A stretch of 64,000 bases of DNA from Gemmatimonadales bacterium (GTDB lineage: Bacteria; Gemmatimonadota; Gemmatimonadetes; Gemmatimonadales; GWC2-71-9), in contig JBGASX010000012.1 of the NCBI GenBank assembly GCA_044229445.1, positions 4,671 to 68,670 of the forward strand, given 5' to 3'. The notes beneath the pieces are model-generated. The model was not told the origin of the DNA, searched no databases, and worked only from the letters and a program-made list of their open reading frames with translations. Below, in pieces: positions 7,182 to 24,852 of this stretch (within the stretch, counting starts at the first letter, position 1; each line of letters starts with the position of its first letter). The translations under genes and the position numbers were made by a program.

Positions 7182-7243
7182 GCGCCTCCCGGTGCGGGGC
7201 TCGCCCCGCTGCTCGCGCTGAGGTCGTTCCAGGGTGCTCGGCA

Positions 7244-8686
7244 TCAGTCGCAGGTCCCCTGGTTGAGGTAGGTGCAGGTCGGACGGTGATGGTGGGTGCT
7301 GCACGTCGACTGCTTGAGGTCGCTGGTCACATGGCAGGTGGCGCACACGTTGTTCGCACCCTGATGCCGGGCACTGAACATCGAGTGGTACTGGGTCGGC
7401 AGCGTGACGCCCGCGTCCCAGGCCACCGTATTGCTGGAGCCGGAGTGGCAGGTGATGCAGGTCTGCGGCCAGTTGTACTGCGTGTGGCTCGGGTTCGCCG
7501 CACTGGTGTAGTCCGCCAGATGGCACACCTGGCAGGTGGTAAGCGTCCCCTGGGTCCCCTTGTAGACACCATTGGTGTGGCACTTGTCGCAGGCCGTCGT
7601 GATGTGCGTGCCGGTAAGCTGGAACGCAGTGGTGCTGTGCTTGAACGTCGACGGGACCCACGCGTTCGTGTTGTGACAGTTCGTGCACGTCGTGACGAAG
7701 CTCGGCAGCGTGTGGGCCGGGTTGGGGACGGGCGCGCCGTTGGTGCCGTTGTAGTCCTTCTGGTGACAGCTGAAGCAGTCGGTCGGCTTGCCCTTGTAGA
7801 CGCCGTCCGCATGGCACTGGACGCAGTTCAGCGCCTGGTGGCCACCCGTCAGCGGGAACTGGCCCTTCGAGTGATCGAAGGCGGCATTCCAGTCCGAGGT
7901 GTTGTGGCAGAGCACGCAGTCCGTGCTGAAACCGCTCGAGCTGTGCGGCGGAGTCGCCGTCGCGTTGTACTTGTCCAGGTGACAGCTCACGCACGTTGTG
8001 CCGAGTGGCGTCTGGAAGTTCGAATTCTTGTGACACTGGTCGCAGGCCGTTCGGGCATGCACCCCCGTCAGCGGGAAGCCCGACGCGTCATGATTGAATC
8101 GCGCCGTCGTCCACGCGGTCACGCTGTGACACTGGGTGCAATCCTGCGGGAAGTTGTTCTGGAGGTGGTCGGGCGCCTTCGCGGCCAGATAGTTCGGCCG
8201 GTGGCAGCTGATGCAGTCGGCCGCCCGGGCGACGAACTGCAGATGCCCCTGTTCGGTCGGGGCGTGGCACGCCGTGCAGTCCGTCGCGAGGTGGGCACCC
8301 TCCAGCGGGAACCGGGTCAGCTGGTGGGCCCGGGTCATCCGCCCGCGGTCGATGAAGCTGCGGGTGGTATGACACTGGACGCAATCGGCGCCCAGTTCGC
8401 CCCGGTGCGCATCCTCATGGCAGGAGGCGCAGGTGCTCGGCGTGCCCTTGAAGTCGAGGGACTGGTGACAGGCGCGGCAGGCCGCGGTCGTGTGCGCGCC
8501 GATGAGGGAGAAACCGAACTTGTTGTGATCGAACGACCGGCTGATCGTCACGTGGGTCCACCCTTCCGAGCGGTGGCACGCGATGCAGTCGACCTTCAGC
8601 TCGCCATGCGGGGAGCGGGTGCGCTCCTGGGCCGCGAGGGGCCCCGCGAGGAGCAGGGCGAGGCCAACGAGGATCAGTCGCTTCAT
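7244..8686 (-). CDS. periplasmic multihaem c-type cytochrome, 17 CXXCH motifs
   Basis: 480-aa ORF with signal peptide MKRLILVGLALLLAGPLAAQ. I count 17 CXXCH, arranged in repeated modules of the form F-x-H-x(3-4)-F-x-L-x-G-x-H-x(4)-C-x-x-C-H. The start overlaps the upstream stop (ATGA at 8683-8686). Confidence 0.9.
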   Translation of the reverse strand: MKRLILVGLALLLAGPLAAQERTRSPHGELKVDCIACHRSEGWTHVTISRSFDHNKFGFSLIGAHTTAACRACHQSLDFKGTPSTCASCHEDAHRGELGADCVQCHTTRSFIDRGRMTRAHQLTRFPLEGAHLATDCTACHAPTEQGHLQFVARAADCISCHRPNYLAAKAPDHLQNNFPQDCTQCHSVTAWTTARFNHDASGFPLTGVHARTACDQCHKNSNFQTPLGTTCVSCHLDKYNATATPPHSSSGFSTDCVLCHNTSDWNAAFDHSKGQFPLTGGHQALNCVQCHADGVYKGKPTDCFSCHQKDYNGTNGAPVPNPAHTLPSFVTTCTNCHNTNAWVPSTFKHSTTAFQLTGTHITTACDKCHTNGVYKGTQGTLTTCQVCHLADYTSAANPSHTQYNWPQTCITCHSGSSNTVAWDAGVTLPTQYHSMFSARHQGANNVCATCHVTSDLKQSTCSTHHHRPTCTYLNQGTCD

Positions 8687-10716
8687 CGGTTCTCCTTGCC
8701 GCCGTGGCAGCTCTCACACTTTCCCGACAGGGGCCGGAAGATCAGCCGCTCCGAGTGCCCACCCGACACATCGTTCACATGACAGCGATTGCACGGCACG
8801 TTCTCGTGCGCGCCCTTCAGCGAGAAGGACGCATCCCGGTTGTGGTCGAATCGGCCCGCCGGCGAGAAGGCCTCGCTGGTGTGGCAGGCCTCGCACCGCC
8901 CGCCGTCCGCCCGGCTGGCGAACTGATTGCCATGCGGGTTCTCGTGGCAGTCGGCGCACGCCGTCTTTGCCGAGAACCGGAGTTCGGCGAAGCTCGCCCC
9001 ACCCGCGATGAGCGACGAGCGTTTCGGTGTGCCCGCCATCTGCTTCATGTCCGCGTGGCAGGCGATGCATGGCGTCGCCCCATGCGCTCCCTCGAGGGCC
9101 AGCCCGAAGTCCTTGTGGGTCGCGATCGTCGCCGTCGAGGGCCGGAACGCCCGCGTATCGTGGCAGGCGAGGCATCCCTGGCTCTTCATGCGTGCGCCGC
9201 CGGCCGAGAAGCGACCCTTGTGCGGATCCACATGGCAGGCGGCGCACTCGACCTGCGTGACCTTGAAGAGGATCCCGGCCTTACCCAGCACCGTGGTCGT
9301 TGTGAGTGGGGGCAGCCCCTTCCGGTCGCTGCCGTGACAGGCGCGGCATTCGATGTCGCCATGCCGGCCGTCGAGCGCCAGCTTCAGCCTGGCGTGCGCG
9401 GAACGGTCGAAGGTGCTGGGCTTCCATCCGGCCACGCCGTGACAGGCGGCACAGTCGCCGCGGTCAGCCCGTGCACGGAGCTGCCCTCCATGATCATCGG
9501 CATGGCAGTCGAGACATGTAGCCGCCGCGGGCCGCATCACCACCTTCGAACTGCCCCATTTCGGTACGGCCGCCGTGCCGGCGTCGCGTCGATGGCAGGC
9601 CGCGCACTTGACGGTCCCGTGCTTTCCTTCAAGCGGATACTTGGCCCTGGCGTGCTGCTCGACGGTGAAGGTCGAGGGCACAAAACCGGCGACCGTGTGG
9701 CAGGCATCGCATCCCACGATCTTCCCCGCCAGGGTCGCCGTTCCGTTATGCGCGTCCTTGTGGCAGGAGGCGCAACTCTGGAAGGCCGGCTTCTTCAGGG
9801 CCGCCGTGGAGAAATCGCCGTGGCAGTCGGCGCACCGCACGGTGGCATGTTCGCCCTTCAGCGGGTACTTGGTCCGGTCGTGATTGAAGCTGGACCGGTC
9901 GATCTGCTGGAAGCTCCGTGTCGAATGGCAGCTCGCGCAGTTGGCGCCGAATTGCCCCTTGTGGACGTCCTCGTGGCAGTCCGCGCAGCTCTGGTGAGGC
10001 ACCGGCTTGTAGACCGGTACCGGGCGCCCCTGCGCGTCGGTCTTCGGGGAGAGCCGCGGAGCCAGATGGCACTTCTCGCACTTCACGTCCGCATGCTTGT
10101 TGGTCAGCGGATACGCGGTGCTGTCGTGGCTGAACCCGGGAGTCACCGTCCATTTGCCGGTATCGTGACACTTCACGCAGTCAGTGCCGAGCGCGCCGCG
10201 ATGCACGTCGGCATGACAGCTGGTGCACGTCGTCTCGAGGCCGGTGTATCCCTGGCCGGTCTTCCGCGCGGACAGCTTGGCCGCATCGGAGACCTGGTAC
10301 TTCGGCTGGTGGCACTCGGTGCACTTCGTGTCGGCATGGGTCTGCGTCAGCGGCCAGCCCGCACGTCGGTGGTCGAACCGCGCGGCGCTGCCGTCCGGCC
10401 ACTTGACCATGCTGAACGTCTCACCGGCGTGATCCGGATGGCAGGAGGCGCACGGGGTGCCCTTGGCCTCCGTGCTCGCGTGGTAGCCCCGGCCACGATC
10501 GATCAGCCAGGCGAGATCCTTGTGACAGCTCTCGCAGCGGGTGGCCATGCCTTCCTTGCCGCCGCCATGGCACTTGGTGCACTTGAGCGTGCCCTCGAGC
10601 TCACGGTGCGCACGTGCCAGCGGCCCGGGGGAGACCTGTCCCCCTAGCCGACTGTTCGAGACCGCACTGAACCCGAGTGCCAGCATGATCACCAAGCCGA
10701 TCGATCGGAATTGCAT
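8683..10716 (-). CDS. periplasmic multihaem c-type cytochrome, 23 CXXCH motifs
   Basis: 677-aa ORF with signal peptide MQFRSIGLVIMLALGFSAVS. I count 23 CXXCH and 7 repeats of the (F/T)-x-H...PL-x-G-x-H...CxxCH module. The start overlaps the upstream stop by 1 nt (TAATG). Confidence 0.9.
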   Translation of the reverse strand: MQFRSIGLVIMLALGFSAVSNSRLGGQVSPGPLARAHRELEGTLKCTKCHGGGKEGMATRCESCHKDLAWLIDRGRGYHASTEAKGTPCASCHPDHAGETFSMVKWPDGSAARFDHRRAGWPLTQTHADTKCTECHQPKYQVSDAAKLSARKTGQGYTGLETTCTSCHADVHRGALGTDCVKCHDTGKWTVTPGFSHDSTAYPLTNKHADVKCEKCHLAPRLSPKTDAQGRPVPVYKPVPHQSCADCHEDVHKGQFGANCASCHSTRSFQQIDRSSFNHDRTKYPLKGEHATVRCADCHGDFSTAALKKPAFQSCASCHKDAHNGTATLAGKIVGCDACHTVAGFVPSTFTVEQHARAKYPLEGKHGTVKCAACHRRDAGTAAVPKWGSSKVVMRPAAATCLDCHADDHGGQLRARADRGDCAACHGVAGWKPSTFDRSAHARLKLALDGRHGDIECRACHGSDRKGLPPLTTTTVLGKAGILFKVTQVECAACHVDPHKGRFSAGGARMKSQGCLACHDTRAFRPSTATIATHKDFGLALEGAHGATPCIACHADMKQMAGTPKRSSLIAGGASFAELRFSAKTACADCHENPHGNQFASRADGGRCEACHTSEAFSPAGRFDHNRDASFSLKGAHENVPCNRCHVNDVSGGHSERLIFRPLSGKCESCHGGKENR

Positions 10717-11696
10717 TACCAGAACCAGGTCGCACCCATCGCGACGACGACCCCGACGTGCACCAGGACCGCCACGAGGGCGGTCAGGGCGAAGGGGCGA
10801 TGCGCCACGTGCCAGAATCGGAAGATGTCCCGCGTGGCCTCGAGCATCCGGGCCTGCTGAGTGAGCGCCATCTCCCGGCTGGCGAGTCGCACGACCTCGC
10901 GCAGGGCACGGCGGTCGAGCTGCTGGCCGCCGGGGCGATTCGCGCAGATGCGCCGGAGGGCGCGCGCCGCCCGCCGACGGGCGAGGTCGTCCTTGATCAT
11001 CAGGACGACCGTTTTCATGAAGCCCGCGCCTTCGTGAGGCGTCGGGTCTGACCGCAGGACGGACTCGACCTGGGCGACCGGCAACCCGGATGTCGCGGCG
11101 ACCGAGGCCATCAGTTCATGCCGCTCGGCGGCGATTTCTTCCGCCGTGAGTTCGAGACCGCTCGCGCTACGCGGGATATGGACGTAGAGGTAGCGGCCGG
11201 CGATCCCGCTCAGCGCGACGATGATCATCGACCAGTATCCCAGTCCGATCACGCCATCGAATCGCCAGGCGGCGTGGATGGCCGCAAGAAAGGGCAGGAC
11301 CAGCGCGGTCGCGACGTGGACGTCCATCCACTTCGACATCGCGCCCGTCCAGGCGAGCCAGCGGTGTTTCTTGCGGAAGGGGTAGAGCCACAGGAACACG
11401 AAGATCAGGACCGAGAGGATGCCCGCACTCTGGCCGATGTAGCCGGACGGTCGGAGCCAGGGATGCAGCGGGCTGCGAACCTGATCTCCAGGCGAAGCGA
11501 AGTAGTACCCGCTGCCTGCGATCGTCACGCCGAGGAGAATGGCGACCGATACGAAGACCGGGGTCAGGGTCTTGTCTCCCCGGGCCTTGGGCTTGGCGGC
11601 GGCTGGGTCGGGGCGGCCGGGCGGCTGCACTTTCAGCGACTGGGTCGCCGAGGGGGATGCGTCGGGGCGGATGCTGGCCAGGCTGGACCGGGTCAT
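10716..11696 (-). CDS. polytopic membrane protein with two H-x13-H helices (ferric-reductase-domain-like di-haem b candidate)
   Basis: 326-aa ORF with about 5 hydrophobic helices. Helix MDVHVATALVLPFLAAIHAAW and helix WHVAHRPFALTALVAVLVHVG each contain His-x13-His. It is the first gene of cluster 1. Haem b binding is inferred, not shown. Confidence 0.6.
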   Translation of the reverse strand: MTRSSLASIRPDASPSATQSLKVQPPGRPDPAAAKPKARGDKTLTPVFVSVAILLGVTIAGSGYYFASPGDQVRSPLHPWLRPSGYIGQSAGILSVLIFVFLWLYPFRKKHRWLAWTGAMSKWMDVHVATALVLPFLAAIHAAWRFDGVIGLGYWSMIIVALSGIAGRYLYVHIPRSASGLELTAEEIAAERHELMASVAATSGLPVAQVESVLRSDPTPHEGAGFMKTVVLMIKDDLARRRAARALRRICANRPGGQQLDRRALREVVRLASREMALTQQARMLEATRDIFRFWHVAHRPFALTALVAVLVHVGVVVAMGATWFW

Positions 11697-13323: not shown

Positions 13324-13749
13324 ATGAAGGCTGGTCACAAGTTCATCATCGGGGCGGGAATCATCGTGGGCGCCGTCAGCGTCCTGATGGCCCAGGGTGT
13401 GAAGCAGTTCGGACAGTATTCGATGAAGCCTTCCGAACTCGCCCAGCGCGTCGAGCGGGATCCGAGCCTGTACGATACCGGGCTCAAGATGGAGGCGAAG
13501 GTCGTGCCGGGCTCGGTCACCCGGGACGCGGCCAGCCAGACGATTGATTTCAAGGTCAGCGATGGCGTGCAGACCTATGCCGTGAGCTATCGGGGGCTCG
13601 CGCCCGATACCTTCACTGACCAGAAGGACATCGAGGTCGTCGTCGAAGGCCGGCTTGGGCGCGATGGCGTCTTTCGAGCCACGACGCTCCTCGCCAAGTG
13701 CGGCTCCCGCTACGAAGCGAAGTACAACGAGCAGGGCAAGCAGGCCTAG
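13324..13749 (+). CDS. ccmE: cytochrome c maturation haem chaperone CcmE, CXXXY variant
   Basis: 141-aa ORF with an N-terminal anchor, an OB-fold-like body aligning to CcmE (KVVPGSV.RD...), and LLAKCGSRYEAKY where canonical CcmE has LAKHDENY. A GGAG motif lies upstream of the ATG. Confidence 0.85.
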   Translation: MKAGHKFIIGAGIIVGAVSVLMAQGVKQFGQYSMKPSELAQRVERDPSLYDTGLKMEAKVVPGSVTRDAASQTIDFKVSDGVQTYAVSYRGLAPDTFTDQKDIEVVVEGRLGRDGVFRATTLLAKCGSRYEAKYNEQGKQA

Positions 13750-13771: not shown

Positions 13772-13815
13772 GAAGCGGGGTGGGACTCGATCCGAGTCCC
13801 ACCCCGCTTCGTTTG
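13772..13815. terminator. bidirectional rho-independent-type terminator between ccmE (+) and the 16-haem cytochrome gene (-)
   Basis: Perfect long hairpin GAAGCGGGGTGGGACTCG-atc-CGAGTCCCACCCCGCTTC followed by GTTTG. Confidence 0.65.
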
Positions 13816-13835: not shown

Positions 13836-15269
13836 CTAGCGGGGGTCGGGAATACTCCGCCCATGGCACGCGGCGCACATCTGGGGGTTCCGCCGCAGCA
13901 GGCGGGCCGCATCGAACCCCGGGCCGTGCGGATCGAAGCGGCCACCTGCCTGCGCCGAGTGGCACTTGAGGCAGTCCCGCTCGCTGTGGCAGGTGACACA
14001 GGTCTCGAGTGATTGCCGCGCCGCCTGCCCATGTCCAGCGATGAACCCCGGCTTGTTTTCGTGGAAGCCGCCCTGCAGGGGGCCGCGCGGCGTCAACCCG
14101 GTTTCCTGGTGGCAGGTGCTGCAGAACTGCCCCTGATTGTGGCACTCCGAGCAGTCCGACTCGCGGTTGTACGCAGCCGCGGGGTGACTGGTGAGGAAGC
14201 CGCCGGGGTGATAGCTCCCGTTGTTGCTCGCGTTGGGCCGGTGGCACTCCAGGCACTCGGTCCGAGCATGGCAGGCGCTGCACGATCTCGAACCGCTGCT
14301 CGCCTGGAGTCCGTGGCGGTCCACGAAATCCTTGCCGTGGCTCAGCGGCATCTTGCGGACGACGTGGGCCCCCTCCGCGCGTCCCGGGCCCCCGAGGGCC
14401 ATCCCGCTCGCGACGGAGGGCTGGGCGCGGTGACAGGCGGTGCAGCTCTGCTGGGTGTGGCAGGCCGCGCAATTCTTCGGGGAGTGCCGCACCATCTCGC
14501 CGTGGCGGGACTGGAACCGATCCTCCCCATGGTTCGCCGGGGCCTTGAGTTCTTCCTTGAGCGCGAGCGACCTCGGGTCGGGCTCCAGCGCTTGAATGAG
14601 CGCAAGTTCCGGGGCATTGACGTGGCACTGTGAACAGAAATCCCGGGCATGGCAGACCGCACAACTCTGGGCCACGCTTGCCCTGGAGCCGGCCGGCGGC
14701 TTCGCCTGCACCCCGTGTCCCTTCGCCGTCATGAATCCCGGTGCGTCGTGCGAGGCGGGTTTCGCGAAGCTGGCGACGCGCTCGGTGGTCAGGCCCGGAG
14801 CCTTGGCGAGCGGTAGATGACAGGTCGCACACGCCGTATCCGGCGCCGCGACGTGCTTGGCGCGAATGCCGTGACAGGCCAGGCACGGCTCCGCCTTCGC
14901 TGGCTGCACCGACATCCAGGCTCGGCCGTCAGGCATGTGGCACTCGGCACACACCAGCACCGAATCGGCACCGAGCTTGTGCGTGGATTCCCGCGCATGC
15001 TCGACATGCGTGAAGCGGAGGTTGGAGACGCGCGGCGCGCTCGGGGCTTCCCATGTGACCCGCTTCTCCACGGTTCCGTCGTGGCAGGTGGCGCACGATT
15101 CGGCGGTCGGCCAGACCGATCGGGTGGTATCCCGGATTCCGGCATGACAGCCTTCGCAGCCCGGGAATACCTTCGCGTGCTTCACATGGTCGAACTTCTC
15201 CATCGGCTGCTGGGCGGAGGCGGATCCACTCAGCAACCCGAGGGCGAGCACGAGGAAGGCGGCTCTCAT
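13836..15269 (-). CDS. periplasmic multihaem c-type cytochrome, 16 CXXCH motifs
   Basis: The track ORF is trimmed to the ATG at 15269 (MRAAFLVLALGLLSGSASAQQ, a signal peptide), which overlaps the upstream stop as ATGA. I count 16 CXXCH. Confidence 0.9.
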   Translation of the reverse strand: MRAAFLVLALGLLSGSASAQQPMEKFDHVKHAKVFPGCEGCHAGIRDTTRSVWPTAESCATCHDGTVEKRVTWEAPSAPRVSNLRFTHVEHARESTHKLGADSVLVCAECHMPDGRAWMSVQPAKAEPCLACHGIRAKHVAAPDTACATCHLPLAKAPGLTTERVASFAKPASHDAPGFMTAKGHGVQAKPPAGSRASVAQSCAVCHARDFCSQCHVNAPELALIQALEPDPRSLALKEELKAPANHGEDRFQSRHGEMVRHSPKNCAACHTQQSCTACHRAQPSVASGMALGGPGRAEGAHVVRKMPLSHGKDFVDRHGLQASSGSRSCSACHARTECLECHRPNASNNGSYHPGGFLTSHPAAAYNRESDCSECHNQGQFCSTCHQETGLTPRGPLQGGFHENKPGFIAGHGQAARQSLETCVTCHSERDCLKCHSAQAGGRFDPHGPGFDAARLLRRNPQMCAACHGRSIPDPR

Positions 15270-16759
15270 CGTCCGATCGCCCGGCGCCGGGCCGGCGGCA
15301 GGGTCAGCATGTCGGCGGCCTTGGAGCCGAACAGCCATGAGAGGCTCATCCGGAGGCGTGTCTGGGACCAGGTGAAGGCGGAGGCGTCTGGCCGACGCCG
15401 GTCTTCATCGTAGCGGACCGCGCCGGCGGCGAGGCGAAGCCGGTCCGAAAAGTGGTAGTCGGTCGAGACACCGTACCATGTCATGCGCGGGTCGTTGTAG
15501 CGGAGTTCCAGTGGGCGCACCAGCGTGCCGCCCTCGACCGTCAGCGACAGCGCCGGGCGCGGTCGCCAGGTCAGATGGCCATCGGCCCCGGAGGATGAGG
15601 CGCCAGGGCCGAACTCGCGATGATAGACCGCGTCGAAGCTCCACCGCGGAATGAACGTGAGCGTTGTGCCGGCACTCCAGCGGAATCCCCGATCCTGGAG
15701 GCCCGCGCCGAGGGGCGCGGAGAACGCCGCGTCGGCATACCAGTAGCGCTCCCCGCTGGTGCGGAAGTCGACGCCCGCGATCGGCTGCACCCAGAACGAG
15801 CCGTTTACCGCCGAATACGGCACGGGACTGAAGGCCCCCCACAGGGTCCAGAGGTCGAAGAAGGGCCGGTAGCGGCGAATGCCTCCCGCGGCGCCCCATT
15901 TCCGCTGATTGACGCGCAGGGTCAGATCGGCCGAACCCCACCAACCGAACGCGAGGTCGTATTCACCGCCACCGCTCAGCGTCCAGCCATTGAAGGGCCG
16001 GAAGGTGGCGGTGACCGCCGCTCGCTCCGAGACAAGATTCCTCGGGTCACGATCGACCTCACGCTGATACTCGACGCGGGCATCCACTCGCGGTCCCTGC
16101 CACTCGAGCGCCGCGCCGGCGACGATCTGCCGCCGTGTAGGCTGGAACTTGTCGAGGGGGTTGATGGCATCACTGGTCACCGGGAGCGCGGTCGCTCGAG
16201 CGAGACCCAGGCCGACGAATCCGATGGCGGCCAGGCCGGCCTTCGGCAGCCGGTAGGTGAAGCGCCCGCCATCGTAACCGGTATACCCCAGACGGCCACG
16301 CTCGATCTGGCGGCCCAGACGGCCATTGATGCGGGCGCCGGCGTATTCGGCATAGCCTTCGAAGAGCTGTACCGGCGTCTGATTGCCAGGCCAGATGTCG
16401 GAGCCCCTGATGTCGACTCCGAGGCGGGCGTTGGCATGGAGGCTGACGCCGCGGATGCCGAACCCCCAGGCGGTGACGTCCGCGCTGGTCGTCAGCGGCG
16501 CCGTGTGCCGTTGAGGACCGGGGCGGTAGTAGTGACAGAAGTTGCTTCCCGCCGGACAGGTGAGGGCGATTCCGTTGGGCGTCTGCAGGCCGCCTCCCGG
16601 GGCAGGCAGGGCCTGCGACAGCGGCAGGGAGTCGTAGCTCAGTCCGCGATACGCTGCCGTCTGCATCCGGGCGTCGAGGCGCACGAGGTACTGCTGTGCG
16701 CCCGCGGCGTTGGTCCCGGCGAGCACGAGGCCGGCCGCGAGGCCGAGGGTGCGCCTCAT
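15266..16759 (-). CDS. outer-membrane beta-barrel protein of cytochrome cluster 2
   Basis: The track ORF is trimmed to the ATG at 16759 (MRRTLGLAAGLVLAGTNAAGAQQ, a signal peptide), which overlaps the upstream stop as ATGA. Composition is strand-like and rich in aromatics/Gly/Arg, with a near-terminal MSLSWLF motif and an N-terminal Cys pair (CPAGSNFC). Confidence 0.6.
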   Translation of the reverse strand: MRRTLGLAAGLVLAGTNAAGAQQYLVRLDARMQTAAYRGLSYDSLPLSQALPAPGGGLQTPNGIALTCPAGSNFCHYYRPGPQRHTAPLTTSADVTAWGFGIRGVSLHANARLGVDIRGSDIWPGNQTPVQLFEGYAEYAGARINGRLGRQIERGRLGYTGYDGGRFTYRLPKAGLAAIGFVGLGLARATALPVTSDAINPLDKFQPTRRQIVAGAALEWQGPRVDARVEYQREVDRDPRNLVSERAAVTATFRPFNGWTLSGGGEYDLAFGWWGSADLTLRVNQRKWGAAGGIRRYRPFFDLWTLWGAFSPVPYSAVNGSFWVQPIAGVDFRTSGERYWYADAAFSAPLGAGLQDRGFRWSAGTTLTFIPRWSFDAVYHREFGPGASSSGADGHLTWRPRPALSLTVEGGTLVRPLELRYNDPRMTWYGVSTDYHFSDRLRLAAGAVRYDEDRRRPDASAFTWSQTRLRMSLSWLFGSKAADMLTLPPARRRAIGR

Positions 16760-18819
16760 CGTGCCCTCCCCGAACGCAGCAACCGTGGCTGATAGTCCTG
16801 CGGATGCGACTGCAGGTGGCACTCGGTGCATTCGCGCGGGCCGTAGTGGTCGACCTTCTGGTCGTGGCAGGCGAGGCAGAACGAGCGCGTCGGTACGAGG
16901 GAGGTAATCTTGGCGGTCGCGTGGCAGGCGTCGCATGCGACGTGCGCCTGGGCCGGCAGCGCGTGGGCCTGCGTGATGGAGGTCGTCCGGTGGCAGGTGG
17001 CGCAATCACGCCCGGACTTGTGATGATCCACATGACACCCCGTGCAGGTCGCCGCCGAATCCACCGGTGGCAGCGACACGACTCCGGCATGACACGCCCG
17101 GCAGTCGAGATCCGTGTGCGCCGAGTGGCGGAAGGTGACCGTGCGCTCGCGGGAGGGCTTTCCGGCCGCGGCGATCCGGACGCTCACCGCGTTGGAGGCC
17201 GGGAGTTCCTCCCTGGCATGACAGGACTTGCAATCGCTCTGTGCCGGCGCCTGATGATGACAGATCTGGCAGCCACGCGGCGCTTCGAACGTGACCTTCT
17301 TGCCCGAAGAGGTCACGTGGCAGGTGAGGCAGGCCAGTTTCTTATGTCGGGTGTGTGAGAAGGTGTCGCTCGGCAGGGCGGTGCGGGTGCTCAAATCCCG
17401 CGTGGGAGGGTCTGCACCAGGCGGGGCATCACCTTTCACCTTGCTCGGCCGCTCGAGGCTCGGAAGCTCCTGGAGCGGCGCCATCGACTGCTTGAGGGCC
17501 TTGAGGGTATCGAAGGGTTGTGGCGGCTTCACGCGCGAGTGACTGCGTTCGCGGACCGCATTGTGGCATCCGGTGCAGTCGCTGGCGTCCACGCGCGCCG
17601 CGTGCGGCACGTGGCAGAGCGTGCACTGCTCCTGCTTGCCGCGATGCTGGGCGCCGACGTGGAAGGGGACCTTCTTGTAATCGGCGTGACACCCCTCGGA
17701 AGCGCAGGATTTCCGCGTCTCACCGACGGTCTTCTGGGCATGGGGATTGTGGCACATGCCGCAGGTGCCGTTGTGCGGATCGGCGCCCGGCGCGAAGCTG
17801 GGAATCAGCTTCTCCATGTCGTGGCACGAGAGGCACTGCTTCAGCGCCGGCCGCAGCGCCCCGGCGGCGGAGTCACGGGTGGCGAGCGCAGCCACCGGCT
17901 TGGTGAACTGATGGCAGACGATGCAGTGCAGGTCGGTCTGCCCCTGCATCTTGCCCAGCCGGATCCGGGTCTCGTCCGTGAGATGGCAGCCCTTCTGCAC
18001 GCAGGTGGTGTCCGCGGGAAGGAAACGATGGGCCGTTCTCGCGTGACAGGTCAGGCATTCGACCTTGCCCTTGAGCGCCGAGGAATCCGATTCGAGGTGC
18101 GTCCGATGCCCGGCGGTGGCCGCGATCGCCTGCCAGGTCTCCTTGGCGGCACCGCGCACATGACACCGCTCGCAGGTCGCCCGCGGCACTCGCGCGTGGG
18201 GCGGGATCCGCTCGTCCCGGACACCAGACATCCAGAAGATGAGCTTCACTCCCTCCTTGAGCGGCTTGAGCGGGTGACAGGTATGGCAGCTGATGGAATC
18301 GTGCTTGCCCTCGAGCCGGGGGACCAGGGTGTAGTCGCCCGTGTCAGGCACGACCCACTTCTGCCCGCTGGCGATGAAGATGTGGCACCCGTTGCAGAAG
18401 CGCTTGTCGGTCTCGACGAACTTGTAGCTGCCATACCCCGCGCCCGCCACGCCGGCAACGGCCAGAAAGGCGGCGGCGACGAGGCCGAACTTGACCGAGG
18501 CGCTGCGCGTCGCCAGCCACTCCAGGATGCTCCGCCGGTTGTGCCACAGCGCTCGAAGGATGACGAAGGCGATGGCGGCAGCGATGAGCGCGCCCATCCA
18601 CATCACCCAGGGCTGCTTCTGGAAGAGCCACTGGATGATGGGGGTGACCCGGTCGCCGAGCAGGGTCTTGTCGACGGTGGAGTCGGCGGGATGCATCGGC
18701 ATCTGCGACGGCAGCGCTGCGGTACTGTCGTGGATCGCCTGGAGGGAGAATACACCCGCCCCGGCAAGCGAGAGCTTGCCGGGGCGGGTGGTATTACCTG
18801 TCGGAGAAACGAGCATCAA
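16756..18819 (-). CDS. membrane-anchored NapC/NirT/CymA-like multihaem cytochrome, 18 CXXCH + 2 CX4CH
   Basis: 687-aa ORF with two N-terminal hydrophobic helices followed immediately by FCNGCH, the arrangement seen in NapC/NrfH-type quinol dehydrogenases. It then has 17 more CXXCH plus CVQKGCH and CASEGCH. Confidence 0.85.
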   Translation of the reverse strand: MMLVSPTGNTTRPGKLSLAGAGVFSLQAIHDSTAALPSQMPMHPADSTVDKTLLGDRVTPIIQWLFQKQPWVMWMGALIAAAIAFVILRALWHNRRSILEWLATRSASVKFGLVAAAFLAVAGVAGAGYGSYKFVETDKRFCNGCHIFIASGQKWVVPDTGDYTLVPRLEGKHDSISCHTCHPLKPLKEGVKLIFWMSGVRDERIPPHARVPRATCERCHVRGAAKETWQAIAATAGHRTHLESDSSALKGKVECLTCHARTAHRFLPADTTCVQKGCHLTDETRIRLGKMQGQTDLHCIVCHQFTKPVAALATRDSAAGALRPALKQCLSCHDMEKLIPSFAPGADPHNGTCGMCHNPHAQKTVGETRKSCASEGCHADYKKVPFHVGAQHRGKQEQCTLCHVPHAARVDASDCTGCHNAVRERSHSRVKPPQPFDTLKALKQSMAPLQELPSLERPSKVKGDAPPGADPPTRDLSTRTALPSDTFSHTRHKKLACLTCHVTSSGKKVTFEAPRGCQICHHQAPAQSDCKSCHAREELPASNAVSVRIAAAGKPSRERTVTFRHSAHTDLDCRACHAGVVSLPPVDSAATCTGCHVDHHKSGRDCATCHRTTSITQAHALPAQAHVACDACHATAKITSLVPTRSFCLACHDQKVDHYGPRECTECHLQSHPQDYQPRLLRSGRAR

Positions 18820-20529
18820 TCAGCGCTGGTTTGTTGACGGTGCCGTGAGGCGGACCGCAGTCCGCACCTGGTTCGGGTTCATGATAGCAGCTTCCGTCGC
18901 CGGTGCCAGCTTGAGCTGCCCGCTGCGGACCGCGCCCTGAATCTGCGCGAGGATTGGAGCGGGCGGGGCGGGCAGAATTCCCGGATACTTCGCGAGGAGA
19001 TCCGCGATGCTCGCCTGGAGCAGCGCCCGATAGAGGAAGGGGTTGTGCACGCCCTTCGAGCCGTCGGGGTGGTCGGCGTAGCCCTCGCCGGTGAGCTGGA
19101 CGTTGAACACGGCGCCCTTCGCCGCGGTCAGCGCGTTCGGCGCGGCGTAGTTGAGGTCCGCAGGGACAGCAGCCTTGATCTTGGCCAGATAACCCGAGTC
19201 CGCGGGGTAGGCGTCCACACCCTCGACGCAGTTGCCCACCGGCACGCACTTGGTGGAGTTGATCCAGAGCGTCCTGGCGTAGCCGTCGATCTCGTTCCGC
19301 AGGTTGCTGAAGAGCTGCTGCGCGACCGCTTCGCCACCCACGTGACAGCCGGACGCCGTGCAGGCGCCCCAGGAACGGCTCGGGACGTCGTAGGCGCAGT
19401 TGTTCGTGAAGGTGGTGTCCACCACCGCCGGGCTCTTCTGCTGCAGGCAGGGCAGCGGGTGGAAGCTGTGCCCGCTGAAGGTGACCGAGTTTCCGTTCAC
19501 GTCCACGCCGGTCAGCTTGTTCACATGGCAGCCCGCGCAGAGCCGCGGATTGGCCGTCGAGCCATGGCTGGCGTAGAAGATCGTGGTGTCGTAGGACGTG
19601 CCGGGCGGGAAGTAGCCGGCATCGCCGAAGACGACGGGTCCTTGCACGCCGTGAGGGCCGCGGGTGCTCGGAGCCGCACCCGGCGAGGACCGGTCGACCC
19701 GGCCATGGCACTTGGTGCAGAGGTTCTGCGTGATGTCACGAGTATCGATGGCGAAGCGGAGCTGGCCGGGCAGCGTGTTGCCCAGGCTGTCCTTCGCGGT
19801 GCCGTGCGGATCGTGGCAGACGACGCAGTTCTGCGGAAGGTACGTGGTGGCCTGGCTGACTTCCTTGAACACCTGGCCCTGCGAGCCATACCAGGCGCGG
19901 AGGGCGCCCTTGCCCTCGTGGCAGGGCTGGCAGCTCGTCTGTACCTGCTCGGCCAGCCGGGGCTGGCCATGCCGGGAGGCGAGCCATTCCTTCAGATAGT
20001 TGTGGTGCTTGGATGGGGTGTTGTCGGTGTGGCACCCGCCGCAGCTCGAGTTGGTAATCGCGGCGGCCGTATCGATATTGATGCTGGGAATCGGCCGGTT
20101 CGCGAGGACCGTCGGGTTCTGTACGTGCTGCAGGCCGGGGCCGTGGCAGCTCTCGCACTGCACATCGTGGTAGGAGGCACTCGCGACGGAGTCGTAACCG
20201 ACGTGCGCGAAGGGCTGGTTGCCACGCGAGTTCACGCTGTGACAGCCGCTGCAGAAGGGCTGGGCGAAGCCGCTCGCCTGCAGATCGCCCCAGGCCGATG
20301 CGTGCTTGGTGTTGATCCAGTCGGCCTGCTGACCAACGTGGCAGTTGCCACAGGTGGTCTGCTGGGTGGCCGCGGTGTAATAACCGAGGAACCCGCTCGC
20401 CGCGTCAGGCGGCGGATTGAACGGCGCGCGATCGCGATACACCACATCTGTACAGGCGCCAAGCCAAGCGGCGGCTGCCAGCGCGAACGCCATCGACCCG
20501 AACCGGGACCGGACACGCGAAGCAATCAT
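18820..20529 (-). CDS. lipoprotein multihaem c-type cytochrome, 8 CXXCH + 1 CX4CH
   Basis: 569-aa ORF with a lipobox (AAWLGAC). It has 8 CXXCH plus CTASGCH, and W-x-x-[ST]-x-H-type elements (WINTKHASAW, WLASRHG). It is the first gene of cluster 2, and its stop abuts the next start. Confidence 0.85.
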   Translation of the reverse strand: MIASRVRSRFGSMAFALAAAAWLGACTDVVYRDRAPFNPPPDAASGFLGYYTAATQQTTCGNCHVGQQADWINTKHASAWGDLQASGFAQPFCSGCHSVNSRGNQPFAHVGYDSVASASYHDVQCESCHGPGLQHVQNPTVLANRPIPSINIDTAAAITNSSCGGCHTDNTPSKHHNYLKEWLASRHGQPRLAEQVQTSCQPCHEGKGALRAWYGSQGQVFKEVSQATTYLPQNCVVCHDPHGTAKDSLGNTLPGQLRFAIDTRDITQNLCTKCHGRVDRSSPGAAPSTRGPHGVQGPVVFGDAGYFPPGTSYDTTIFYASHGSTANPRLCAGCHVNKLTGVDVNGNSVTFSGHSFHPLPCLQQKSPAVVDTTFTNNCAYDVPSRSWGACTASGCHVGGEAVAQQLFSNLRNEIDGYARTLWINSTKCVPVGNCVEGVDAYPADSGYLAKIKAAVPADLNYAAPNALTAAKGAVFNVQLTGEGYADHPDGSKGVHNPFLYRALLQASIADLLAKYPGILPAPPAPILAQIQGAVRSGQLKLAPATEAAIMNPNQVRTAVRLTAPSTNQR

Positions 20530-20848
20530 ACGGATTAACCGTGTGTTAAGGGTTCGGAGCTAAAGTACCCGTAATTCTACGGAAGGCAAGCAAAGATCTA
20601 GTGAAACTGTCTTCATTTGAAGCATATGATTCTCTTAGAGTTCCGGGCTCAGGTTCCGCGTCGGAAAGGGTTCGCGCTCCCGGTGCTGCGGGTCGCTGGT
20701 CGGAGCGCCGAGTATCCGCCCACACCGCAGCATTCCGGACACGACGCAATGCCGATGCGGCACCTCCCGTTCTCAACCCGTCCCTCCTACCTTCACTGAC
20801 TGCCGCGATCGGTCGCTCCGGCGGCGTCCACATCCTCGAGAGATTCCA

Positions 20849-21634
20849 GTGACATCTGTCGTCTGCCCCTCCTGCGGCAAGCCTACCGGTGGGAAGTTCT
20901 GCCGGCACTGTGGTACCACTCTGGGAGGCGAGGGCTGCGCACGCTGCGGGAGTCCGATGCCCGCGGGTGCGCGTTTCTGCGCCAATTGTGGAACGTCCTC
21001 GGCGCAGGGACGCCAGGCGATCGGCGGGAACGAACGGCTCCTCTGGTTTCTCGCGGGCGGTGGTGTGGTTGCGGTGGTCGGCGGTCTGGCCCTCTACGCC
21101 ACGCGCGGGACCTCCGTCGCACCGGTCGCGGCACCGGCAGGCGCCGAGGCGCCGTTCGCGTCGGGAGGAGGCACGGGAGCGACCCCGCCCGACATCAGCA
21201 ACATGACGCCTCGAGAGCGGTTTGACCGATTGTTCGACCGCGTCATGCGCGCCGCCGAATCGGGGGACGAGGCGACGGTCACCAGTTTCGCGCCGATGGC
21301 CGTGAGTGCGTACGGGATGCTGGATGCTGCGGATCTCGACAGTGACGCCCGGTATGACGCGGCGCTGATCAAGCTGCACACGGGCGATGTCGATGGCGCC
21401 GCCGCCCTGGCGGACACCATCCTCAAGAAGCAGCCCGGGCACCTCTTCGGTATCATCCTGCAGGGCACCATCGCGCGCTTCAAGAAGGACGACAGGGGAT
21501 TGAAGAAGAGCTACGCCGACTATCTCAGTCATTACGATGCGGAAACCAAGGCCAAGCGTCCCGAGTATGAGAAGCACGCGCGCTCGATCGAACAGTTCCT
21601 GAAGGACGCGCGCGACGCCGGCGGAAAATCCTGA
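20849..21634 (+). CDS. double zinc-ribbon / single-TM protein with helical C-terminal domain
   Basis: 261-aa ORF (GTG start) with CPSCGKPTGGKFCRHCG and CARCGSPMPAGARFCANCG, then the TM helix LLWFLAGGGVVAVVGGLALYA, then a helical-repeat-like domain. It lies immediately upstream of ccmF. Confidence 0.6.
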   Translation: MTSVVCPSCGKPTGGKFCRHCGTTLGGEGCARCGSPMPAGARFCANCGTSSAQGRQAIGGNERLLWFLAGGGVVAVVGGLALYATRGTSVAPVAAPAGAEAPFASGGGTGATPPDISNMTPRERFDRLFDRVMRAAESGDEATVTSFAPMAVSAYGMLDAADLDSDARYDAALIKLHTGDVDGAAALADTILKKQPGHLFGIILQGTIARFKKDDRGLKKSYADYLSHYDAETKAKRPEYEKHARSIEQFLKDARDAGGKS

Positions 21635-21644
21635 GGGCTGAGTC

Positions 21645-23693
21645 ATGACACTGCTAGGACAATTCGCGCTGTGGGCCGCCTTCTTCATCGGTGGCTGGGC
21701 GGCGATCATCGGATTCTCAGGGCGCTGGCACGGACGGCCGGAACTGGCCGTCAGCGTGACCCGCTCGGTCTACGCCCTCTTCGGCGTGCTCGTGGTCGCG
21801 GCGATCTGCCTCTGGCAGGGGCTGATCACCCACGACTTCAACATCGAGTACGTCGCGAGCTACACCTCGAGAAACCTGCCGGGCTATTTCATCTTCTCGG
21901 CGTTCTGGGCCGGACAGAAGGGATCGTTGCTCTTCTGGGCCATCGTCCTGAGCATGTTCGCGGCGCTGGCCCAGTGGCTGACGGCCGCGCGATACCGGGC
22001 GCTCATGCCGTACGTGGCGGCGGTGACCAGTTCGGTCGTCGTTTTCTTCGTCACCGTGATGCTGTTTGCCGCCAACCCGTTCATGCGGCTGCCCTTCACG
22101 CCGCCCGACGGAAACGGCCTCAATCCGCAGCTGCAGAACATCGGGATGGTGATCCATCCGCCGATGCTCTACCTCGGCTACATCAGCATCACGATTCCGT
22201 TCGCCTTCGCGATCGCGGCGCTGCTGTCCCGCCGGCTGGACACCGGCTGGCTGCACGCCATCCGGAAGTGGACGCTGATGAGCTGGCTCTTCCTCTCGAT
22301 CGGCATCACCCTCGGCATGTGGTGGGCCTACGTCGAGCTGGGCTGGGGCGGGTACTGGGCGTGGGATCCGGTGGAGAACGCCAGCCTGCTGCCCTGGCTG
22401 ACCATGTCGGCGTTCCTGCACTCGGTGATGATCGAGGAGAAGCGGGGCATGCTGAAGCGCTGGAACATGACCCTCATCATCGGGTCGTTCCTGCTGAGCA
22501 TCTTCGGAACCTTCATCACCCGGAGCGGGGTGATCGCGAGCGTTCACAGCTTCACCCAGTCGAACGTCGGCTACTTCTTCCTCGCCTTCCTGCTGAGCAG
22601 CGGGGTCCTGGCCTTCACTCTGCTGTATACCAGGTGGGAGCGCCTCGAGGCCGAGGTGCAGCTGGAGAGCGTGGTAAGCCGCGAGGCGGCGTTCCTCTTC
22701 AACAACCTCCTGTTCGTCGGCATCGCCTTCTCGGTGCTCTGGGGGACGCTCTTCCCGATTCTCTCGGAAGCGGTGCGGGGCACCAAGATTACGGTCGGTC
22801 CGCCGTTCTTCAACAAGGTGAACGTGCCGCTCGGGCTGCTGCTCCTGGCGCTGACGGGCATCGGGCCGCTCATCGCCTGGCGCAAGGCCTCGACCGCCAA
22901 CCTCAAGCGTCAGTTCACCTGGCCGCTGGTGGCCGGGGCGATCGTGGTGGCGCTCTGCCTGGTGGGCCGGATGGAGAACTTCTACGCCATCGTCGCGCTG
23001 GGGCTCGCCGGTTTCACCGCCGGCACGCTGGTCCAGGAATTCACCCGCGGCACCCTGGCGCGGCACCGGATGTACTCCGAGTCGTATCCGGTCGCCTTTG
23101 CGCAGCTGGTGGCGCGGAACCGCCGGCGGTACGGCGGCTATATCGTGCACACGGGCATGCTGATCTACTTCGTCGCCTTCGCCGGCTATGCCTTCAAGAC
23201 CGAGATGGAGGCGACGCTCAAGCCCGGTGATTCGGCGACCCTCAAGAGTCCTTTCGGGCATACCTACGTGTTCACCCATGTCGGTGTCTCGCAGTTCGAG
23301 CAGATGAACCGGGTGGTGACGCAGGCCTCGGTGCAGGTCACCAAGGACGGCAAGTCGATCGGGGTCATCAACTCGGAGAAGCGGCAGCACTTCTCGGAGC
23401 CGGCACCCGGCGTCAGGCAGAAGTCGTTCGAGCCGTCGACCGAGGTCGGGATCCGCAGCACGCTGCAGGAGGACCTGTACATCGTCTATGCCGGCTCGGT
23501 GGCCGGCACCGAAGAGGCCGTCTACCGCTTCACGATCAACCCGCTGGTCATCTGGGTCTGGATCGGTGGCATCGTGCTGGTCGTCGGCGGGCTGATCACC
23601 ATGTGGCCCGGCGGCACCACGAGCACCGGCTCGCTCAAGCGGGCTGAGGCCGGCTACGAGGTCCAGCTTGCGGGCTCGGGGTCGACGACGTGA
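21645..23693 (+). CDS. ccmF: cytochrome c-type biogenesis protein CcmF (haem lyase subunit)
   Basis: 682-aa polytopic ORF with the WWD-type motif WGGYWAWDPVENASLLPWL and typical CcmF length and topology. Confidence 0.92.
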   Translation: MTLLGQFALWAAFFIGGWAAIIGFSGRWHGRPELAVSVTRSVYALFGVLVVAAICLWQGLITHDFNIEYVASYTSRNLPGYFIFSAFWAGQKGSLLFWAIVLSMFAALAQWLTAARYRALMPYVAAVTSSVVVFFVTVMLFAANPFMRLPFTPPDGNGLNPQLQNIGMVIHPPMLYLGYISITIPFAFAIAALLSRRLDTGWLHAIRKWTLMSWLFLSIGITLGMWWAYVELGWGGYWAWDPVENASLLPWLTMSAFLHSVMIEEKRGMLKRWNMTLIIGSFLLSIFGTFITRSGVIASVHSFTQSNVGYFFLAFLLSSGVLAFTLLYTRWERLEAEVQLESVVSREAAFLFNNLLFVGIAFSVLWGTLFPILSEAVRGTKITVGPPFFNKVNVPLGLLLLALTGIGPLIAWRKASTANLKRQFTWPLVAGAIVVALCLVGRMENFYAIVALGLAGFTAGTLVQEFTRGTLARHRMYSESYPVAFAQLVARNRRRYGGYIVHTGMLIYFVAFAGYAFKTEMEATLKPGDSATLKSPFGHTYVFTHVGVSQFEQMNRVVTQASVQVTKDGKSIGVINSEKRQHFSEPAPGVRQKSFEPSTEVGIRSTLQEDLYIVYAGSVAGTEEAVYRFTINPLVIWVWIGGIVLVVGGLITMWPGGTTSTGSLKRAEAGYEVQLAGSGSTT

Positions 23694-24310
23694 TCCAGAA
23701 TCGTCGTGCCTTCCTGTCGGGCGCTGCCGTCGCCGTCTTCGGCGGTGCCGTCGCCGGGCGGCTGACTGGCCAGGAGCCGTCGCTGCCGCCGCAGGCCGAG
23801 ACCGGGTCGCTGCGCGATCCCGAGTCCGCGGGGCGCTCGCAGGAGCGGGCGACTCACCGGGACAACGATCCGTTCATCACCGCCATCGAGAAGCGGATCC
23901 AGTGCACCTGCGGGTGCACGCTCGACGTCTATACCTGCCGCACCACGGACTTCACCTGTACGTACTCGCCCGCGCTGCACAAGGAAGTGCTCGCGCTCCA
24001 GGATGAAGGCAAGAACGCGGAGGAGATCATCGCCGCGTTCGTGGCCAAGTACGGCGAGAAGGTGCTGATGGCGCCCAAGCCGGAGGGATTCAATGTCGCC
24101 GGGTACGTGGTGCCCGGCCTGCTGATTCTGCTGGTCGGAGGCGTCATGCTGGCGATTCTGCAACGGCGCGCGCGATTGAGCCGGCCGGCGGTGCTGCCCG
24201 GGGCACCGGCGATGCCGACCGGCGCGGCCGGGGCCGTGGTCTCGGCACCGCCCGCATCGGCCGAGGAACTCGAGCGACTCGCACGCGAATTACGGGAGAT
24301 GGACCAGTAA
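23690..24310 (+). CDS. ccmH: CcmH/NrfF-family protein with atypical cysteine motif
   Basis: 206-aa ORF with a twin-Arg-like signal (NRRAFLSGAAVAVFGG). The segment LQDEGKNAEEIIAAFVAKYGEKVLMAPKPEG plus a following TM helix match the CcmH family layout. The Cys motif is QCTCGCTLDVYTC rather than RCxxC. Confidence 0.7.
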   Translation: MIQNRRAFLSGAAVAVFGGAVAGRLTGQEPSLPPQAETGSLRDPESAGRSQERATHRDNDPFITAIEKRIQCTCGCTLDVYTCRTTDFTCTYSPALHKEVLALQDEGKNAEEIIAAFVAKYGEKVLMAPKPEGFNVAGYVVPGLLILLVGGVMLAILQRRARLSRPAVLPGAPAMPTGAAGAVVSAPPASAEELERLARELREMDQ

Positions 24311-24852
24311 TGCTCTACGAAGCAATTGCCGCGGCACTCGTTGCCCTGGCCGCCGTGGCGCTGATCATCGGTCCGCTGACGCGTCCTGGCCAGGGACCGG
24401 TGGCTGGGGCCGATGAGCCGGAGGACATCGAGGAGACGCCGAAGGGCATGGCGCTCACCGCCCTCCGAGAGATCGAGTTCGACCGCGAGACCGGCAAGCT
24501 GTCGGATGACGACTACGCCGCGCTCAAGTCGAAGTACACCGCCGAGGCGCTCGCGATTCTCCGCCTCGAGTCCAGCGACCGCGGCACCGCGGCCCCGAGC
24601 CCCGCGACTACTGCGTCGGCTTCCGCCGCTTCCGGGGGAGACGCGGTCGAGGCCATGATCGCCGACCGTGTCCGCACCATGCAGGCGGGCAGCATCCGCT
24701 GCCGAAGCTGTGGACCTCGTCCGGAGAGCGACGCGCTCTTCTGCTCGTCCTGCGGCCGCTCGCTGACGGTGGGCGGGTGCTCGAGTTGCGGTGCTCCCCT
24801 CATCCCTGGCAGCAAGTTCTGCGAAGGCTGCGGCACAGCCGTTCCACGCTGA
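24310..24852 (+). CDS. single-TM protein with C-terminal double zinc ribbon
   Basis: 180-aa ORF with an N-terminal TM helix (IAAALVALAAVALIIGPL). The C-terminus is CRSCGPRPESDALFCSSCG...CSSCGAPLIPGSKFCEGCG. The start overlaps the ccmH stop. Confidence 0.6.
   Translation: MLYEAIAAALVALAAVALIIGPLTRPGQGPVAGADEPEDIEETPKGMALTALREIEFDRETGKLSDDDYAALKSKYTAEALAILRLESSDRGTAAPSPATTASASAASGGDAVEAMIADRVRTMQAGSIRCRSCGPRPESDALFCSSCGRSLTVGGCSSCGAPLIPGSKFCEGCGTAVPR

Follow-up and report, generated by a model that had tools for sequence, protein, structure and literature searches.

We analysed a stretch of 64,000 nucleotides (hereafter the window; GC-rich, with approximately 68% GC) from contig JBGASX010000012.1 of a Gemmatimonadales bacterium. 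At 13836–20529 on its minus strand lie four consecutive open reading frames (ORFs), which we call A, B, C and D in the order of transcription. This group, cluster 2, carries 45 haem motifs in three cytochromes together with the gene of an outer-membrane β-barrel, and it is described here as a candidate conduit for extracellular electron transfer. The genes and the features that bound them are as follows.

18820–20529, minus strand: gene A, a 569-residue lipoprotein cytochrome with nine haem motifs (eight CXXCH and one CX4CH)
16756–18819, minus strand: gene B, a 20-haem cytochrome with a predicted inner-membrane anchor (18 CXXCH and two CX4CH)
15266–16759, minus strand: gene C, a 497-residue outer-membrane β-barrel protein with a signal peptide, two cysteines and no haem motif
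13836–15269, minus strand: gene D, a 477-residue periplasmic cytochrome with a signal peptide and 16 CXXCH motifs
13773–13809, minus strand: a hairpin with a perfect 17 bp stem, 27 nucleotides past the stop codon of D, in the gap that separates D from the convergent gene ccmE
20530–20848, no strand assigned: a 319 bp divergent intergenic region between A and the zinc-ribbon/tetratricopeptide-repeat (TPR), ccmF and ccmH genes

The TGA stop codon of A abuts the TTG ATG at the start of B, and the next two junctions are ATGA overlaps (B and C at 16756–16759, C and D at 15266–15269). Read from the TTG at 18819 the product of B has 687 residues, and read from the ATG one codon downstream (18816) it has 686; the NCBI records, on a contig of 74,667 bp, give the 686-residue ATG form, and they list C (start ATG 16759) and D (start ATG 15269) as we do. 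The hairpin beyond D has a fold energy of −45.9 kcal/mol (z = −7.0). It has no U tract and was missed by a consensus terminator scan, and it is likely to mark the end of the transcript. Since the genes abut or overlap and are followed by this strong hairpin, they form one operon. The 319 bp divergent region is presumed to hold the promoter; a sigma-70 consensus scan of it found nothing above shuffle expectation and no Rfam family was matched. We considered a 387-residue ORF at 20546–21709 on the minus strand as a further gene and rejected it. Its composition is that of a shadow ORF (rich in Arg, Gly and Ala), it matches no family, and it is read as a shadow because the zinc-ribbon/TPR gene at 20849–21634 on the plus strand is supported by Pfam. 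An earlier note on this DNA, made without database searches, had proposed a four-gene operon with the same coordinates and with abutting or overlapping junctions, all of which were reproduced by translation and motif counting. Its haem counts (nine, 20, none and 16 for A to D) were recounted exactly, and its total of 85 motifs in the five cytochromes of this cluster and of the nearby cluster 1 (23 + 17 + 16 + 20 + 9) is correct. The window has no multihaem ORFs other than these five.

Barrel C has more than 1,000 database relatives, and those that are named all come from Gemmatimonadales or from Gemmatimonadota metagenome assemblies, in which they are annotated as hypothetical. When one genome of each GTDB species was scanned, 443 relatives of C came up. 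Among the best 80, 78 are titled Gemmatimonadota and the other two are metagenome-assembled genomes of Bacillota and Acidimicrobiaceae. The closest locus, JBGATI010000001.1, is 94–98% identical across the whole region. The Danish MFD and wastewater-plant datasets are the origin of many of the loci.

The signal peptide of A ends in the lipobox LGAC, and the pattern L-[GSA]-[AG]-C-T-[DE], with Thr at position +2, is kept in approximately 50 homologues. Nine haem motifs are found in every full-length homologue, and the 8 + 1 pattern in approximately 50 of 56. Single-sequence searches with A returned generic multihaem families only. A profile built from 29 homologues matched two structures in the PDB, OmhA (6qvm_A; E value 6.6e-16) and OcwA (6i5b_A; 1.4e-15); the match to OmhA is one stretch of 209 positions in which six haem motifs are in register, and A also aligns with OcwA and OmhA at the C-terminal DGSxGVHN motif. 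The next families were hydroxylamine oxidoreductase (HAO), octahaem nitrite reductase (ONR) and cytochrome c554, at E values of 1e-4 to 1e-5 (best 1.9e-5). At the one histidine site examined, A invariably has the His of the RGPH-x-PQ segment, and the neighbouring His of OcwA and OmhA (HH) is a proline in A. OcwA from Thermincola potens and OmhA from Carboxydothermus ferrireducens are cell-surface terminal iron reductases of Gram-positive bacteria, which cluster in one clade with c554 and MccA and are the sole structurally characterized surface iron reductases of that clade (PMC6703420, PMC7829351, PMC9250108). OcwA shares with A the number of nine haem motifs. The two characterized proteins belong to single-membrane bacteria, in whose wall or S-layer they are located, whereas A is a lipoprotein of a two-membrane host and is encoded beside a barrel. 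Judged by its profile matches, A is an OcwA/OmhA-type cytochrome with an acquired lipoprotein anchor in a two-membrane bacterium, and we predict that it is a terminal redox protein of the outer membrane or the cell surface.

Protein C has no match in Pfam at E values up to 0.01 (MtrB/PioB included) and none in NCBIfam. Its AlphaFold2 model, computed with 28 homologues, is a barrel with 22–23 strand elements assigned by DSSP, a predicted local distance difference test (pLDDT) score of 77.8 and a predicted template-modelling score (pTM) of 0.69, and Cys68 and Cys75 are invariant in the 28 homologues. A Foldseek comparison of the model with the PDB returned generic large barrels (24–26 strands among the best) with root-mean-square deviations (r.m.s.d.s) of 9–18 Å. 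The best TM-score, 0.49, was to the FimD usher (24 strands), and MtrB (6r2q_B) ranked 19th with a TM-score of 0.39 and 9% identity. As modelled, C is a large outer-membrane barrel of approximately 22 strands which lies outside the described families, and its modelled strand count falls in the size range of cytochrome-sheathing barrels.

Of approximately 70 homologues of cytochrome D, all except two have 16 CXXCH motifs. The five N-terminal haems of D resemble those of ActA from alternative complex III (6lod_A; E value 4e-8), and beyond them the CXXCH motifs are paired. C and D occur together in every locus that reaches past C, and D is likely to be the cytochrome that threads the barrel. The earlier note had already described A as lipobox-bearing with eight CXXCH and one CX4CH, C as β-barrel-like with an N-terminal Cys pair and D as a periplasmic cytochrome with 16 CXXCH. 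These descriptions agree with the motif counts and conserved lipobox of A, with the modelled barrel and its two invariant cysteines, and with the signal peptide of D and its constant pairing with C.

Protein B is divided as follows.

18409–18612, minus strand: anchor, residues 69–136, a helical hairpin of two helices and an Arg/Lys-rich loop
17560–18396, minus strand: 11-haem module, residues 141–419, in which haems 1–3 form a putative, diverged NapC/NirT-like head
17362–17559, minus strand: proline-rich linker, residues 420–485, which holds ERPSKVKGDAPP
16759–17361, minus strand: nine-haem module, residues 486–686, made of c7-type units

B alone among the four proteins is membrane-anchored. 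More than 880 homologues were found, and of the 120 listed all that carry a name belong to Gemmatimonadota. In an alignment of 29 homologues all 20 haem motifs are invariant, the two N-terminal helices are conserved and the tail ahead of the hairpin is variable. AlphaFold2 places helices at residues 69–92, 94–103 and 106–136 with pLDDT values of 78–91 (45 overall), and the first haem motif, FCNGCH, follows approximately five residues past helix 2; the arrangement of two transmembrane helices and then FCNGCH is as had been proposed from the sequence. Because of the positive-inside rule, and because c-type haem is attached in the periplasm, both the N-terminal and the C-terminal ends of the hairpin would be periplasmic.

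B shares with the PF03264 family (NapC/NirT/NrfH/CymA) a helix, a first CXXCH within a few residues of it and then a histidine approximately six residues before the second CXXCH. It departs from the family in that 13 residues are inserted between its first two haems, a further helix is present at the N terminus and the haems number 20 as compared with four or five, and its first haem motif follows the second of two helices, not a single N-terminal helix. None of the 120 listed homologues carries PF03264, and in PDB profile searches with B the match to NrfH involves an unrelated region only. When the head of B was compared with 1.84 billion representative proteins, 173 relatives were found. The distant relatives P0351, P0363 and P0388 (E values of 5e-12 to 6e-9) score 27.8, 26.4 and 24.9 bits, respectively, against PF03264, which is above the cut-off. 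P0351 and P0388 have FCVSCHLM and FCTTCHLM after a single helix, P0340 combines a two-helix hairpin with FCLGCHIM, and B is 33% identical to P0351 over 156 residues spanning helix 2 and haems 1–4. A 22-haem cytochrome (665–670 residues) of a sister operon, present in the loci L003, L058, L064 and L077, has a single-helix head with FCKSCHIM and scores 41 bits against PF03264; its alignment and that of B match in hhalign at 99.9% (E value 2e-31) over B columns 244–664, from haem 4 to the end. Since the bridging homologues pass the Pfam cut-off and the body of B is homologous to that of the NapC/NirT-headed sister protein, transitive homology supports the head of B as a diverged offshoot of the NapC/NirT superfamily. 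The NapC/NirT/CymA label that B had been given therefore stands as a statement of kinship, borne out by the bridging homologues and the sister protein, and does not stand as family membership, given a PF03264 score of 18 bits where 24.1 are required, a Phe in place of Met and two helices. A direct hhalign comparison of the head of B with the classical NapC/NirT head (87–91%) was discarded, as unrelated multihaem segments of A, B and D reach 93%. The head may oxidize quinol.

The linker of B, at approximately columns 500–640 of the alignment, has low pLDDT values, and the copy number of its ERPSKVKGDAPP unit varies among homologues. Linker length varies in the homologues P0178, P0181, P0212 and P0223, some of which have at least two copies of the unit, and P0178 has a duplication of approximately 70 residues in the linker between the haem modules. 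In the C-terminal module the B-family profile matches the dodecahaem protein GSU1996 (3ov0_A; E value 1.4e-7) and PpcA-type c7 (approximately 2e-4), and residues 489–686 match both Cytochrom_CIII and Cytochrome_C7 of Pfam above the cut-off. Full-length searches of the PDB with B and D gave domain-level similarity only (c7, c3, ActA and MtrA).

A read-through fusion of A and B was considered, as the two genes are in frame across the TGA here, and was rejected: the frame is shared in 20 of 64 loci, which corresponds to chance. We note that in one locus (L063, 1261–4866) A and B form a single ORF of 1220 residues with 29 haem motifs. Because frame sharing is at chance level, this fusion is probably the result of a lost stop codon or an assembly error. 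Should B have a periplasmic N terminus, the topology would allow a fusion of this kind.

Enough upstream DNA for a comparison of architectures was available in 56 loci. In 47 of these the order is A–B–C–D, and it is kept down to 40–50% identity; the loss of synteny that the earlier note had named as fatal to its proposal is not what the gene order shows. Five loci have A, a stand-alone nine-haem protein, C and D. In these five, L002 among them, the nine-haem protein replaces B, has 243 residues and consists of a signal peptide and the nine-haem module only. In the other four loci a longer operon ending in a b561-type cytochrome b precedes C and D. The nine-haem module is also found at the C-terminal end of the NapC/NirT-headed protein encoded in L003 (33% identity, E value 2e-20). 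All three architectures keep an A-type lipoprotein, the nine-haem module, C and D, and only the inner-membrane module varies. As the module is retained in all three, it would serve as an adaptor that docks on the C–D unit.

The sister operon occupies 1132–12987 of L003 and is also present in L058, L064 and L077; once it is found in the same genome as a locus with A, the nine-haem protein, C and D. Its nine genes encode, in order, an A-like lipoprotein, a 153-residue protein, a bc-type cytochrome b, a 417-residue multihaem cytochrome, the NapC/NirT-headed 22-haem cytochrome, a 424-residue multihaem cytochrome, a b561-type cytochrome b, a barrel and D. This operon recalls a published idea, 'PCC4 with bc1 subunits'.

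Taken together, these results suggest that the operon probably encodes a self-contained porin–cytochrome conduit for extracellular electron transfer in Gemmatimonadales. The operon structure, the A–B–C–D order, the invariant haem sites, the lipobox, the match to OcwA and OmhA, the barrel and the links to NapC/NirT all argue for such a conduit, as do the restriction of the variants to the inner-membrane module and the linkage to ccmE, ccmF and ccmH. By its parts cluster 2 would be a porin–cytochrome-type system and a variant of its own, a reading that rests wholly on sequence. In the proposed path B would be anchored in the inner membrane by its two-helix hairpin, with the first haem at the membrane surface in the diverged NapC/NirT-type head, and this head would exchange electrons with the (mena)quinone pool. 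Electrons would then pass through the 11-haem module and across the flexible proline-rich linker to the nine-haem c7-type module, which would dock on D, itself sheathed in the outer membrane by the barrel C of approximately 22 strands. From D they would reach A on the outer membrane, and A would finally hand them to extracellular or insoluble acceptors, for instance humic substances or oxides of Fe(III) or Mn(IV). Flow along this path could also be reversed. With the Mtr geometry of roughly 8–9 Å per haem, the 20 haems of B and the 16 of D would be ample to bridge the periplasm without soluble carriers. Only tentatively do we go further and propose that all 45 haems form one hard-wired path from the quinone pool to the surface, free of diffusible carriers, in which B both taps the quinones and spans the periplasm; this stronger form may hold but is doubtful.

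Several observations weigh against the proposed conduit. The cytochrome domains of full-length B have no confident AlphaFold2 model (pLDDT 45), and an N-out topology of B requires that a tail of 40–65 residues cross the membrane without a signal peptide. Residues 61–300 of B score 18 bits against PF03264 (E value 0.0026), below the gathering threshold of 24.1. In the first motif, FCNGCHIF, an invariant Phe takes the place of the Met of CXXCHxM in the family, and the hhalign match of the head of B to the NapC/NirT head is no better than those of the controls. The barrel of C has no specific similarity to MtrB in the Foldseek comparison with the PDB. In five loci the operon has no inner-membrane head at all, and the fused head is for this reason inessential. 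The genomes with cluster 2 are all metagenome assemblies, with no isolate among the best 80 loci. Those Gemmatimonadota that have been cultured are aerobic, and none is known for metal reduction.

The same architecture could also carry electrons inwards, from Fe(II), Mn(II), reduced humics or partner cells to the quinones, in which case B would be a quinone reductase. The host Gemmatimonadales come from soil and sludge, cultured members of the group are aerobes, and 14 of 58 loci have a second, unrelated conduit alongside, all of which would suit such a flow. Porin–cytochrome proteins and NapC/CymA- or CbcL-type proteins occur in reducers as well as in oxidizers, and the direction cannot be read from sequence (PMC6295460, PMC5566968). 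We nevertheless consider inward flow unlikely: OcwA and OmhA, the closest characterized relatives of A, are terminal reductases of iron reducers, no genes for carbon fixation or other lithotrophy were seen in the examined part of the window, and nothing positive points to this direction.

A less probable alternative is that A is a periplasm-facing multihaem enzyme acting on nitrite, hydroxylamine, sulfite or tetrathionate and fed by B and D, with C as a substrate porin or an unrelated protein. The OcwA/OmhA clade is akin to NrfA, ONR, HAO, MccA and c554 and has members which reduce nitrite in vitro (PMC9250108), and the profile of A does match HAO, ONR and c554 at E values of 1e-4 to 1e-5. These matches to catalytic families are, however, ten orders of magnitude below those to OcwA and OmhA, and A is a lipoprotein with Thr at +2. 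The translational coupling of C and D and their inseparability in all loci, as in cytochrome-sheathing systems, also argue against an enzyme of this kind, and the 36 further haems would be out of proportion for feeding it, so that we regard it as improbable. It is very improbable indeed that C serves for export or assembly, like an usher or a surface-lipoprotein translocon, and places A or D on the surface without being a permanent sheath: the best Foldseek match is to the FimD usher (24 strands, 0.49), ahead of MtrB (0.39), and the barrel lies outside known families, but the matches are generic for large barrels (r.m.s.d.s of 9–18 Å), the model of C has no usher plug or periplasmic domains, and C is strictly paired with D and not with the lipoprotein A.

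Comparison of the proposed conduit with characterized systems indicates a common logic and different parts. MtrCAB of Shewanella and MtoAB/PioAB combine, as cluster 2 would, a barrel, a periplasmic multihaem cytochrome, a surface lipoprotein cytochrome and a quinol dehydrogenase of the NapC/NirT type (CymA). No part of cluster 2 belongs to their families, and A is of the OcwA/OmhA type and not of the MtrC type. Against the DmsE/MtrA model TIGR03508 (cut-off 192 bits) A scores 33 and B 23 bits, and D has no match. In B the putative quinol module is fused to a 20-haem wire, whereas CymA, a tetrahaem protein, stands apart and depends on soluble carriers. The Geobacter clusters (OmbB–OmaB–OmcB and ExtABCD among others, with ImcH or CbcL as inner-membrane partners) also keep porin-like, periplasmic and lipoprotein multihaem genes together, and Geobacter has c7-type trihaem periplasmic carriers that are like the C-terminal module of B (GSU1996, PpcA). 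None of the NCBIfam models of Geobacter components matches A to D at its cut-off. ImcH is defined by three helices at the N terminus, a membrane-adjacent CX3CH and five to nine further CXXCH motifs, and in a survey of imcH the inner-membrane gene was not seen encoded with a barrel (PMC6295460). B is not an ImcH, as it has no CX3CH, two helices and 20 haems in place of approximately seven; and cluster 2, unlike imcH as surveyed, encodes its inner-membrane module with the barrel.

PCC3 and PCC4 were, like cluster 2, predicted from genomes only (He et al., 2017; PMC5566968). They have a conserved five-helix b-type inner-membrane protein with two WX3HX13H motifs (PMC5566968), which is absent from the four genes of cluster 2; a c-type membrane-anchored cytochrome is found instead. 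Metagenome surveys have described, in many phyla, porin–cytochrome clusters whose partners are NapC-like or ImcH-like (PMC13264449). Two features of porin–cytochrome complexes in the generic sense are seen in the C–D pair: a barrel gene adjoins a periplasmic multihaem cytochrome gene, and the barrel, as modelled, has at least approximately 20 strands. In the literature we found no description of this type of cluster in Gemmatimonadota, only survey-level mentions.

In soil, Gemmatimonadota rank with the more abundant phyla, and their physiology is poorly known. We know of no member that has been shown to respire metals, and the phylum is not, to our knowledge, regarded as electroactive. Clusters of this general kind are now routinely reported in metagenome surveys. 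If the interpretation of cluster 2 is correct, the occurrence of such a conduit in 443 species-level genomes would imply a large unrecognized role in the redox cycling of iron, manganese and humic substances in soil and sludge; and, should the stronger form hold, a hard-wired path would be widespread, in hundreds of species, among the Gemmatimonadota of soil and sludge. Cluster 2 would join parts that usually belong to separate lineages, namely a surface reductase of the type found in Gram-positive thermophiles, a quinol module of NapC/NirT derivation that is fused to a long wire, and a barrel of no known family. The operon variants, with a fused head, with no head or with a classical NapC/NirT head and b-type cytochromes, offer natural controls for the coupling of the inner and outer membranes. 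The OcwA/OmhA type of A, the modular build of B and the ccm genes on either side are new relative to the earlier note.

The neighbouring genes are as follows.

5559–11696, minus strand: cluster 1, encoding a 326-residue membrane protein, 23-haem and 17-haem cytochromes and a barrel of approximately 545 residues
11942–13279, plus strand: a fusion of a 2×[4Fe–4S] ferredoxin and a pyridine-nucleotide-disulfide oxidoreductase (YpdA-like)
13324–13749, plus strand: ccmE, convergent with D (PF03100, E value 6e-25)
20849–21634, plus strand: a zinc-ribbon/TPR gene with a double zinc-ribbon, between A and ccmF
21645–24310, plus strand: ccmF and ccmH, divergent from A (Pfam CcmF_C, E value 1.6e-55; CcmH, 6e-13)
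24310–24852, plus strand: a second zinc-ribbon gene, after ccmH

Cluster 1 begins with the 326-residue membrane protein, which has a weak match to cytochrome b561, and its barrel of approximately 545 residues matches no family; by its layout cluster 1 may be PCC3-like. It adjoins cluster 2 in 14 of 58 loci. A specific kinship of the two clusters was considered and rejected, as neither their barrels nor their membrane proteins have significant similarity, and D has only weak, patchy matches to the 480-residue cytochrome of cluster 1. Because adjacency is limited to 14 of 58 loci and the parts are not specifically related, the two clusters are independent units and not an obligate pair. Of the two readings that had been offered for this neighbourhood, parallel conduits fit insofar as they are independent, the adjacency and the unrelated parts telling against a functional pair with cluster 1, and nothing supports an inward–outward pair.

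The ferredoxin–oxidoreductase fusion lies directly upstream of ccmE, between the two clusters, and is kept in the 14 loci which have both. Genes for ferredoxin–NADP reductases beside porin–cytochrome clusters were noted in a 2026 survey (PMC13264449). On the other side of cluster 2 the divergent arrangement of the zinc-ribbon/TPR gene, ccmF and ccmH recurs in approximately 20 related loci. The haem-binding motif of CcmE is LAKCGSRYE, which is CxxxY and not the usual HxxxY. Desulfovibrio and some archaea are known to have the same variant. It may matter for the heterologous expression of these cytochromes. Among the 29 ccmE hits in related loci, CxxxY is kept in all 26 that cover the region.

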